Positions 48,101 to 51,100 of a stretch of 64,000 nt of DNA are shown piece after piece (position 1 is the stretch's first letter; every line of letters begins with the position of its first letter). Made by a program: the position numbers. Source of the stretch: Gammaproteobacteria bacterium. GTDB taxonomy: Bacteria > Pseudomonadota > Gammaproteobacteria > Natronospirales > REEB76. Location of the stretch: positions 8,618-72,617 of the forward strand of contig DATBAJ010000035.1 in NCBI GenBank assembly GCA_036271575.1. Reading direction: 5' to 3'.

Positions 48101-51100
48101 CCACGGGCCGGTCCGAGAAAGCCAGATTGCCGCCTTCAAACCCCCTGCGGATATCTTCGGCGCCCTTGCCGAGATAGATGAGCGTCGGGTGGCCGGCGTC
48201 GCGCAGGGTCGCGAGCAACGCAGCGAGCGTATCGAAAGGCTTCAAGTAGGCGAATACACGCTTGCCGTCGCCCGGCGGCCAGGTGGGAGCCACTCCTGCA
48301 TCCTGTTGGGTCGGCCCCCAATAGTCTCCCGCATCGCGCCCGAGGTAATGGTCCAGTTCCCGGAACGTGAAGAACACGTTCGCCTCCGCCGTGTAGATGT
48401 CTGCAAGACGCGCGATGGGCGATTCATCCAAGCTCTGCAGCGCATCGTTTACGGTGACGGTGACCCGGGCTTCCGAGGCGACCAGGTCCGGGGCCGCATC
48501 GTCCGCGGCGAAGGCTGGGAACGGCGATACCGACGGCGGGATGCCGAAGCCCGTGCCCAGCACGACACGGGGGATCTTCAGGCCGCGCGCCGCCAGGAGA
48601 GCCGTGGGGCTATGGTCGAATACCAGGAGATCTGGATCGAGCAGAGCAAAGAGCCTGCGCCAGGCTCGTACGCGGCCGGCTAGATTGGCTGAGGCGTGGA
48701 AACCGGTGTTATGCATCACCTCGGCCAGGTTCCGGGTAGGCAGCCGGGGATCGGGCACCGCCTCGTTCTGATAGGGCGCCTGGAACCAACGGAAGTTCTC
48801 GGGATCGAGCAGCCGTTCTGCCGGCAGGCATTCGCGCACGATGAAGCTGACCTGGTGCCCATGCCGGTGCAGCGCTTCCGCCAGCGGCTTCATGCGCGCC
48901 ACGTGGCCCAAGTCGCCGCCCAGTTCCCAACACATGACGACATGTGCCATGTCAGCGTTCCGCCGCCAGGCGCGTCACCAGCGCCGTGAACTTCGTGACC
49001 GCGCTTGCGGTATCCCAGTCGCGATGCCTCTGGGCGATGGCCCGCGCCTTTTCGCCGAAGGAGGGTTCGTCCAGAACTCGCGCCAGTTTGCGGAGGATGC
49101 CTTCACGCTTCAGCGCCGGTGCTGCGAGCCCCGCACCGCTCTCCTCGATACCGCGTGCGATGAGGAACATCTCCAGGTGCTGGGGCAGGACCACCACCGG
49201 CTTCCCCGCCAGCAACATCGCAGCCACGGTGCTGTGGCCGCTGGTCATCACCGCGGCATCGCAGTCGCGGGTGACGGCGGCCATGTCCTGCAGCGTGCCG
49301 GCGAAGACGAGCCGGGGCCCGGCGAAGCGGCGCAGTTCCGGCGCGAGCTTGGGTATGTAGACCAGCGTGCGATGGGCCGCGCCGGCCAAGGACTCCAGCA
49401 CTCCGGCCAGGCTCGGGAAAGGCTGCCCGTAGAAGAACACGCGCTTGCCCGAGCCCGCGGGCCAGCGCGGCGCGGCACCGCCCGGACCCGGCAGGACGCC
49501 CCAGTAATCTGCGCCAGCGCGCAGCGCCGCATAGTTGTCGAGTTCGGGGAAGGTGAACAAGGCCGGTGCCGTACCGGCGTACAGGTCCGCGACGCGGGTG
49601 AAGAGCGGCGCCCCAAGTCGTCGCGCGACATCGTTCATCTGCTGCAGTGCTTGCGCCTCGGCATCCGCCAGAAGTTTGGGGTCCGCCGGCGCCCAAGGCC
49701 GGAGCTCCGGCAACGGCGAGACATCCGGCGGCAGCACGAAACCGTTGCCGGTGATCACGCAGCGCATCGGGCCGCCGCGGGCTGCCAGCAGCGCGGTGGG
49801 GGCGTGATCGGCCACCAGCACGGCCGGCTTCAGCATCTCAAACAGGGATCGCCAGGCACGCACCCGCGCCCTGACTTCATCGGCGTGGTTGAATGCAGTG
49901 CTGAGCAGGATCTGGGGATAACTGTGCAGCGTGACCGCACCGGAGGGTGAGAAGTTGGCCGGCGCCGGATAGAAGGGGATGCCGCTACCTGCCAGCACCG
50001 CCTCGGCGGCCACCACGTCCCGCACCACGAAGCTGACCTCATGTCCCGCAGCTTTGAGCGGTCGGGCGAGGGTGAGGAGAGGGGCCAGATGCCCGTACCC
50101 GGCGCCCAGTTCCCAGGCCATGAGTATCTTGGCCATCCCGCGGATTTCCCCCGAAAACGAGGCCTCACTCTACCGGAAGATGCCGGACGGCGGCATGGAA
50201 CGCTACCCCCCTTTCCGGTATCATTTTCGGCCTCCGGAAACCAGATTTTTCGGCTTCGCGGTGCACGGATGCACCGCACGCGAATCAGGCACCCAAGTGC
50301 CTGATTCGGCGGAGGCGAGTCCGAGCATATGCCGGTCTCGCCGAGTCTGAAAAATCCTGGGATGGATTTTTCAGACGTATGTTAAAACTGCGGTGGGTCT
50401 CCCACCGCCTTTTGATTTTCAGCCACCGCGGACGATCCAAACAAGCATGGGCAAGCGCACATCCCTCTATGACTCCCATGTCGCAGCCGGTGCGCGCATG
50501 GTCGACTTCGGCGGCTGGGATATGCCGGTGAACTACGGTTCGCAGATCGACGAGCACCACGCGGTGCGTAGCGATGCCGGAATGTTCGACGTCTCGCACA
50601 TGACGGTGGTGGACATGGAAGGCCCGCGGGTCGCCGAGTTCCTGCGCCACCTTCTGGCCAACGACGTGGCCAAGCTCAAGGAGCCCGGCAAGGCGCTCTA
50701 CAGCTGCATGCTCAACAACCAGGCCGGCATCATCGACGACCTGATCGTGTATTACATGCGTGACGGCTGGTTCCGCATGGTGGTGAACGCCGCCACCCAT
50801 GACAAAGACCTGGCCTGGATCAACCAGCAAGCCCAGCCGTATTCGATCAAGCTCACCGAACGTCAGGTGGTGATGATCGCGGTGCAGGGACCGAAGGCGC
50901 GCGAGAAAGCCGCTTCGGTACTGCCGGCGGCCTTGCGTGAACCGGCGCTGGCGCTCAAACCCTTCAGCGCGCTGGAAGGCGAGGACCTGTTCGTGGCGCG
51001 CACCGGCTACACCGGCGAAGACGGTTTCGAGATCATGCTCCCAGCAGAGCAGGGCGCGGACTATTGGCAGAAGTTCCTGAAGGCAGGCGTCAAACCCGCG

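Follow-up and report, generated by a model that had tools for sequence, protein, structure and literature searches.

The DNA analysed here is a stretch of 64,000 nucleotides (the window) from a Gammaproteobacteria bacterium (assembly GCA_036271575.1, contig DATBAJ010000035.1), and the subject of this study is the region upstream of its gcvTHP operon, in which a terminator is found without any riboswitch before it. The intergenic region is 310 nt long (50137-50446) and lies between a divergent glycosyltransferase (GT) gene on the minus strand (48952-50136, an open reading frame (ORF) with weak Pfam GT28/EryCIII-like matches) and the gcvT ATG at 50447. On the plus strand, gcvT (aminomethyltransferase, 50447-51532; Pfam GCV_T 3.9e-86, GCV_T_C) is followed by gcvH (51557-51949; Pfam GCV_H 2.8e-45) and, 3' of gcvH, by gcvP, an ORF that extends to 54932 with a likely ATG near 52035 and is also called as gcvP in relatives. 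The GcvT protein of the window is 100% identical to HEX4300186.1, which comes from a metagenome-assembled genome of a Gammaproteobacteria bacterium. In an earlier reading of this sequence (the original prediction), the whole intergenic region was described as a hairpin-dense leader of 310 nt closed by an intrinsic terminator. The divergent layout that it described was borne out: the upstream gene is on the minus strand, and nothing upstream is left to terminate.

The upstream region was compared with gcvT loci of related bacteria. The closer loci, with GcvT identity to the window in brackets, were L161 (95%), L081 (93%), L162 (92%), L163 (91%), L166 (88%), L167 (84%), L168 (83%), L170 and L179 (both 79%), L172 (77%), L173 (76%), L175 (74%) and L001 (72%), and ~150 more distant gammaproteobacterial gcvT loci were also compared. 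The clade of the window is defined by GcvT proteins that are 72-100% identical, and it supplied 13 distinct related leaders from 20 fetched loci.

An Rfam 15 scan of the whole 64 kb gave zero matches at the gathering threshold, and the Glycine family (RF00504) gave no match within 50000-50600 even at E<=10, in agreement with the original prediction, which had reported no glycine aptamer. The 13 closer leaders likewise matched no Rfam family, RF00504 included. Membership of RF00504 requires at least one glycine aptamer (a P1-P3 three-way junction with the core GGAGAG / ACCGAAGGGGCAA / CUCAGG..GGAC), which is missing from the window; what the window shares with this family is the location upstream of gcvTHP and a terminator homologous to the riboswitch-linked ones. 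Glycine aptamers were detected by Rfam directly upstream of gcvT in 14 more distant relatives (~60-70% GcvT identity), with scores of 34-70 bits. Several of the aptamer-bearing relatives are labelled Steroidobacteraceae, and four of the scanned distant loci hold a tandem pair, that is, two aptamers per leader.

The terminator itself was confirmed at 50390-50420 on the plus strand, where the stem-loop GCGGTGGG-TCT-CCCACCGC (50390-50408) is followed by the tail CTTTTGATTTTC. It has the properties of an intrinsic terminator, namely a stem of 8 bp (7 of them G-C), a loop of 3 nt, the tail CTTTTGATTT and a free energy (dG) of -15.4 kcal/mol; it is the second-best terminator-like site in the 20 kb scanned, and no second copy of its hairpin occurs within the 64-kb window. 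The distance from its end to the gcvT ATG is 26 nt in the window and about 26-35 nt across the close leaders. The terminator is present in all 13 related leaders, and the clade consensus GGCGGYGGG-(3-5 nt)-CCCRCCGCC-TTTTGATTTTC closes every close leader. In the riboswitch-bearing relatives the terminator (GGGGCGGTGGG...CCCGCCGCCTTTTTT; in L011, AGAGGGGCGGTGGGTC..CCCGCCGCCTCTTTTTTTTT) overlaps aptamer 2 on its 3' side, and the clade terminator aligns with it base by base. In the clade terminators the U tract is interrupted (tail UUUUGAUUUU), the stems are 8-10 bp long and dG is -11 to -22 kcal/mol; the riboswitch-linked terminators have stems of 11-13 bp, dG values of -22 to -29 kcal/mol and 5-9 contiguous U. 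Some likeness of the hairpin to the RfaH ops element (GGCGGTAG) was noted by eye and rejected, being confined to the stem arm, with the T variable in relatives. The 26 nt between the terminator and gcvT (50421-50446, plus strand) form a C/A-rich spacer in which no recognisable Shine-Dalgarno (SD) sequence was seen by eye before the ATG. Most of the aptamer-less leaders of the clade (L161-L175) also have a C/A-rich spacer and no SD sequence, and the riboswitch-bearing relatives carry GGAG/GAGG (by eye).

The second conserved feature is the plus-strand block TTTCCGGTATCATTTT (50212-50227), which occurs once in the window, is identical at 16/16 positions in all 13 related leaders and contains the invariant hexamer TATCAT (50219-50224), a 5/6 match to the -10 consensus. 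Thirteen relatives with riboswitches have a homologous TAnnAT box (for example TTCCGCTACCAT and CCGGGTAACAT) that stops 14-16 nt short of aptamer 1; because of this position the box was assigned as the -10 element for gcvT transcription, which would place the start of transcription at ~50231. A weak -35-like hexamer, TGGAAC (50196-50201, plus strand), may be read 17 nt upstream of the -10 box; it matches TTGACA at 3/6 positions, reads TGGTGC or TGGTAT in relatives, and is not reported, nor is any other site, by a sigma-70 consensus scan. The figure of 310 nt in the original prediction thus stands for the intergenic region, but the transcribed leader is probably ~216 nt long (about 50231-50446). 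Two other promoter candidates were rejected: a sigma-54 promoter (TGGCAC-N5-TTTCC in some relatives, with the GG unconserved by eye and CGCTAC in the window) and a promoter between the terminator and the ATG, where there are 26 nt only and no -10 box.

Since the start is placed near 50231, the outermost of the predicted stems, the inverted repeat TACCGGAA-N34-TTCCGGTA (50171-50220, arms 50171-78 and 50213-20), lies upstream of the transcript. It is kept only in relatives with a divergent GT gene and is absent where the DUF885 gene is co-directional, and the minus-strand sequence of 50167-50172 is TAGAGT, which resembles a -10 box and would serve the GT gene, so that the repeat probably represents the DNA of back-to-back divergent promoters. 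The divergent GT and gcvT boxes are mirror images ~42 bp apart (TCCGGTAGAGT on the minus strand, TTCCGGTATCAT on the plus strand) in the window (50167-50224), L161-L168 and L179, and a conserved segment (CCGGCAAG / GGCATGGT) lies between them; the pair could be two back-to-back promoters or the site of a shared regulator.

Conservation of these elements was judged against the 4-fold degenerate sites of gcvT in 78 pairs of sequences. Identity is 75-87% for the terminator block (31 nt), 57-74% for the degenerate sites and 56-68%, close to the degenerate sites, for the RNA that links promoter and terminator. The promoter and the terminator are more identical than the degenerate sites and are therefore considered to be under purifying selection, and the middle of the leader appears to evolve at about the neutral rate.

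In a neighbour-joining tree of GcvT, the aptamer-less clade of the window forms a monophyletic group that branches among lineages carrying tandem riboswitches. When the window clade is compared with the riboswitch-bearing relatives, the promoter box and the terminator align, and the missing aptamer block is the sole large difference. These sequence comparisons show the terminator to be, in all probability, a relic of the expression platform of an ON-type tandem glycine riboswitch, and they show a history in which both aptamers would have been lost in the ancestor of this soil gammaproteobacterial clade, with the promoter and a shortened, weaker terminator retained. L002, L082 and L012 represent apparent separate aptamer losses on the same tree; a flag for L081 on the tree ('RS1', from a regular expression) is a false positive, as Rfam detects no aptamer there. 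In L002 (2830-3000) and L082 (2357-2500), which have riboswitch-bearing neighbours on the tree, the aptamers are missing, a -10 box and a terminator-like hairpin are retained before gcvT, and the two are separated by ~100-125 nt of quite different RNA; these loci are possibly independent aptamer losses or replacements.

The closest known system is accordingly the gcvT ON switch built on a tandem glycine riboswitch, with which the window leader shares the operon gcvTHP, the same class of distance from the ATG, a homologous promoter box TTCCG(G/C)TA(T/C)CAT and a homologous terminator GGGCGG(T/C)GGG...CCCGCCGCC followed by a U tract. The window leader differs from it in that both aptamers, which define the family, are missing, the stem in the window clade is 3-4 bp shorter, the U tract is interrupted, and there is no competition between P1 and the terminator, so that no glycine sensing is evident. 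Tandem glycine riboswitches have been proposed to degrade into singletons (PMC6944388), and singleton glycine riboswitches with a 'ghost aptamer' are the proposed products (Ruff 2016, PMC5066625; Crum 2019, PMC6944388). The proposed direction is shared, in that aptamers erode while the expression platform persists, but singletons retain one complete ligand-binding aptamer and the window leader has none. The aptamer-less leader would be a further step on the path from tandem to singleton, namely complete loss of the aptamers with the platform retained.

In the relatives, the RNA between promoter and terminator is ~55 nt long and fast-evolving, and it replaces an aptamer region of ~200 nt. Most members of the clade have a hairpin at the extreme 5' end with a U-rich loop (AUUUUC, AUUUCC, UUUCCC and similar) and with arms of quite different sequence. 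The folding z-scores of this 5' hairpin are -5.2 in L167, -2.8 in L170, -2.7 in L162 and -2.4 in L163, with a mean of about -1.6, and they are near zero (no stable hairpin) in the window, L161 and L179; the counterpart in the window (H1, 50234-50261, plus strand) is weak, with a U-rich loop and a z of +0.33, no better than shuffles. The hairpin could be a ghost-like remnant of an aptamer. It is followed in most members by a short RCCCY stretch, which is missing in L172 and L001.

Several tests were made for a switch within this RNA. Covariation among related gcvT leaders had been suggested as a check in the original prediction; alignment of 13 leaders by sequence (MAFFT), followed by RNAalifold, recovered the terminator but nothing else, with 0 compensatory pairs, and the 5' hairpin could not be aligned by sequence. 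For an antiterminator, transcripts of 14 leaders were truncated before the 3' arm of the terminator and the upstream RNA was shuffled; pairing of the 5' arm with the upstream RNA did not exceed that with 200 dinucleotide shuffles (mean z -0.59), giving no sign of an evolved antiterminator. Attenuation by a leader peptide was rejected, as no conserved ORF was found in the leaders inspected, several of which are without any ATG (for example L167), and a short ORF in L163 is unconserved. ANTAR and ribonucleic antiterminator (RAT) sites were also rejected, no paired hexaloops being seen by eye. Because the middle is neutral and there are no compensatory pairs, no antiterminator above chance and no conserved ORF, the leader gives no sign of a ligand-binding core or a cis switch, and the proposal of a novel glycine- or one-carbon-responsive leader found no positive support.

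In L166, L081, L179, L172 and L163, the first 15-17 nt of the transcript can form an alternative small stem (GCCUC/GAGGC, GCGC/GCGC, GUCC/GGAC, CGCC/GGCG) with a conserved U run directly 3' of it, which resembles a miniature early terminator and competes with the fold of the 5' hairpin, and in the window a scan flags 50224-50240 plus CCAGATTTTT as early-terminator-like. An early terminator made of such a small 5' stem (GCC..GGC) and the U run was set aside, being indistinguishable from the fold of the 5' hairpin (H1).

The window leader differs from those of its relatives in a genome-specific insertion of ~125 nt (50258-50385, boundaries +/-6 nt). It holds four palindromes, at 50258-50277 (8 bp), 50281-50308 (12 bp, perfect), 50314-50342 (10 bp, 1 mismatch) and 50345-50376 (13 bp, perfect), which together with the inverted repeat of the promoter are the five upstream stems of the original prediction, its perfect 12-bp and 13-bp stems included. 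The insertion has no counterpart in L161, L081, L162 and L163: 50137 to ~50263 aligns in long blocks to L161, L162, L163 and L081 at 83-89% identity, ~50386-50449 aligns to L161, L162 and L163 at 92-97%, and ~50264-50385 is unmatched. When 50251-50392 is aligned with 44131-44265, the z-score is 7.4 for the reverse complement of the latter and -0.2 for the same orientation. The second copy of the composite element (44134-44262) lies inverted in the aspS-NUDIX intergenic spacer, with palindromes at 44139-44171 (14 bp), 44173-44202 (12 bp), ~44207-44224 and ~44226-44247. The hairpin at 50345-50376 (CTGAAAAA..TTTTTCAG, also given as CTGAAAAATCC..GGATTTTTCAG) recurs at 44139-44171, with 0.00 chance matches expected, and no such hairpin was found in 174 fetched loci. 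Relatives elsewhere in the window had been noticed for this hairpin and for the one at 50281-50308; the former was found again, but the latter has no individual match in the window within 3 mismatches. Matches of the insertion at 46634-46646 and 58543-58556 in a BLAST search lie within coding sequence and were set aside as chance.

The insertion is absent in relatives and homologous to the inverted 44131-44265, and was therefore identified as a copy of a dispersed element like the repetitive extragenic palindromic (REP) sequences and bacterial interspersed mosaic elements (BIMEs). The two copies found in the 64 kb searched are both intergenic, as repeated extragenic palindromes are, and insertion polymorphism between close relatives was also observed. 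The RNA of 50228-50422 folds better than shuffles on both strands (z = -8.1 for the plus and -7.8 for the minus strand), and such equal folding is as expected for palindromic DNA repeats. As in REP/BIME elements, the element is extragenic, has several perfect or imperfect palindromes in a row, occurs in both orientations and is absent from orthologous sites; its differences are that no more than two copies were seen in the 64 kb searched, that its sequence is unrelated to the enterobacterial or Pseudomonas REP consensus, and that it has the unusual position of separating promoter from attenuator within a 5' leader. A match to naRNA4 was treated as noise (15.6 bits against a gathering score of 59.5). 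The loop or top of the 12-bp palindrome (50285-50297, GGCACCCAAGTGCC) includes ACCCAAG, and the identical 7-mer occurs in the linker of L161 (2426-2433, CAACCCAAGATTC); it may be a partly surviving piece of ancestral linker within the inserted block, or a chance match.

The hairpins seen in the original prediction are therefore real, but they are not one unit, as the four internal palindromes are specific to this genome and the outermost stem is promoter DNA. The impression of a hairpin-dense leader gained from a single genome arises because a REP-like insertion enlarged a short leader. A canonical intrinsic terminator just before gcvT, with nothing upstream to terminate, was recognised correctly; it is a relic platform, and not part of a new hairpin-rich sensor.

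The explanation that we favour, with a probability only a little better than even (about 0.55), is that the region consists of a conserved promoter and the weakened relic terminator of a lost glycine riboswitch, between which a REP-like element was inserted, and that it works as a leaky attenuator. As a whole, it is an aptamer-less variant of a known leader, a relic riboswitch platform with a REP insertion. RNA polymerase would start near 50231 and meet a moderately strong terminator that forms unopposed; a fraction of the transcripts would end near 50416-50420 and the remainder would read into gcvTHP. The relic terminator would then set or damp the expression of gcvTHP as a leaky attenuator blind to glycine, and conditional control, if any, would come from promoter-level or trans-acting factors, with no part played by ligand sensing in the folded leader. 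The hairpins of the REP-like element would be passengers, tolerated because the spacing within the leader is uncritical.

Accounts of riboswitch evolution mostly deal with how aptamers are gained, are duplicated or decay, and to our knowledge the fate of an expression platform after loss of its sensor is rarely documented. Throughout the clade studied here both glycine aptamers are gone, and purifying selection still acts on the promoter and on a trimmed terminator. Should this terminator be functional, the control of gcvTHP has been rewired, and these leaders are a place to seek a new antitermination factor or a constitutive 'damper'. The locus is also a warning that REP-like insertions can make a short leader look like an elaborate RNA and that readings of a single genome over-interpret it.

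Several points weigh against a simple leaky attenuator. The transcription start and actual termination are both deduced, and a terminator that always forms before a needed operon is costly. The sequence conservation of the terminator (a near-invariant tail TTTTGATTTTC, the loop TCT) goes beyond what a stem and a U tract need, which hints at recognition by a specific factor or at a second role; the poor -35 element (3/6) suggests an activator; and the fixed position of the 5' hairpin with its U-rich loop is not accounted for by simple attenuation. The 13 distinct leaders are also too few for covariation statistics, and the antiterminator test covers cis pairing only. The invariant stem, loop and tail, the poor -35 element and the lack of an SD sequence leave room for a trans antiterminator, a translational or stabilising role, or a leader small RNA (sRNA).

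Control in trans, in which an antiterminator protein or an sRNA recognises GGCGGYGGG-UCU-CCCRCCGCC-UUUUGAUUUUC and/or the U-rich loop of the 5' hairpin, is an unlikely alternative. It would explain why the terminator is conserved in sequence, and not merely in structure, above the 4-fold degenerate sites, and why the 5' hairpin keeps its U-rich loop at a fixed position; as there is no cis antiterminator, any regulation would have to come from outside the leader, and gcvT mRNAs are known targets of sRNAs in Neisseria (PMC13104608). However, no candidate regulator gene adjoins the locus, either in the window or in relatives, the leader matches no protein-binding RNA family in Rfam, neither ANTAR-type dual hexaloops nor RAT-type sites were seen by eye, and the middle region is neutral and tolerates a 125-nt insertion. 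A related and rather doubtful proposal is that a distinct regulatory RNA, made up of the invariant promoter box, the 5' hairpin with its U-rich loop and the same terminator GGCGGYGGG-UCU-CCCRCCGCC-UUUUGAUUUUC, has functionally replaced the tandem riboswitch, by means of a trans antiterminator acting at the terminator or of a minimal aptamer embedded in it.

The hairpin and its U-rich tail might instead now serve mainly to stabilise the mRNA, or to offer the ribosome (S1) a U-rich standby or enhancer site that this gcvT would need for want of an SD sequence, but we consider this improbable. The contrast between the mostly SD-less clade and the SD-bearing riboswitch relatives (by eye) is in keeping with such a role, as are the interrupted U tract and the shortened stem, both of which reduce termination efficiency, and a tail more conserved than a terminator requires; but the hairpin still qualifies as an intrinsic terminator by standard measures and ranks second in the 20 kb, and in sister lineages the homologous hairpins plainly serve ON riboswitches as terminators. 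Somewhat less probable again is an sRNA gene running from promoter to terminator (~95 nt in relatives, ~190 nt here) and acting in trans, with gcvTHP expressed by read-through. A 5' hairpin, a single-stranded linker and a U-tailed terminator do resemble Hfq-type sRNAs, and the promoter and the terminator are the two conserved parts, but the linker that would carry the seed is neutral, completely different between members and interrupted by the insertion in the window, no Rfam sRNA family matches, and the unit is always tied to gcvT.

That the short leader is a new, very small riboswitch for glycine or a one-carbon metabolite, for example with an aptamer embedded in the terminator, is very improbable. 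It would occupy the exact position of the lost riboswitch in the same operon, its terminator is conserved in sequence, and a compact terminator-embedded aptamer has a precedent in the HMP-PP (thiS motif) riboswitch, in which a hairpin plus terminator can conceal an aptamer (PMC6478431). The likeness to that riboswitch lies in a small upstream hairpin followed by a sequence-conserved, classic intrinsic terminator before a metabolic operon; the window-clade terminator lacks its conserved internal-loop nucleotides and matches no Rfam model, and deletion from another riboswitch explains the layout of the window without a ligand. There are, moreover, no conserved nucleotides outside the stem arms, the single internal position of the stem varies freely (C.A, C.U, U.U, U.G, U-A), identity in the RNA 5' of the terminator is at the neutral level, two members lack the linker motif RCCCY, and no alternative pairing rises above chance. 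A compact aptamer that extends over both the 5' hairpin and the terminator is also hard to reconcile with tolerance of the ~125-nt insertion. Finally, a REP cluster that fills the whole 310-nt region without any leader function, one of the options of the original prediction, is hardly credible: it fits the internal hairpins, since the four strongest palindromes are a dispersed repeat that folds equally on both strands, but the promoter and the terminator lie outside the insertion, are conserved in insertion-free relatives and are homologous to riboswitch-associated elements.

Beyond the GT gene next to gcvT, a second GT paralogue lies at 47760-48950 and a DUF885 gene at 45928-47763; the GT genes of this locus are also called in L161 and L163. 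DUF885 is found upstream of gcvT in both arrangements, being co-directional and adjacent in the deeper-branching L170, L172, L173 and L175, and inverted together with the two paralogous GT genes in the subgroup of the window (45928-50136), suggesting that a local inversion, or an insertion, took place at the promoter boundary. Two copies of a further kind of palindrome, GAAGGGCC(G)C-TTGC-G(C)GGCCCTTC, were found (0.00 expected), one at 22530-22553, 3' of a stop codon at ~22505, and one at 51988-52009, in the gcvH-gcvP spacer; they may represent a second REP-like unit or be terminators of a common type.

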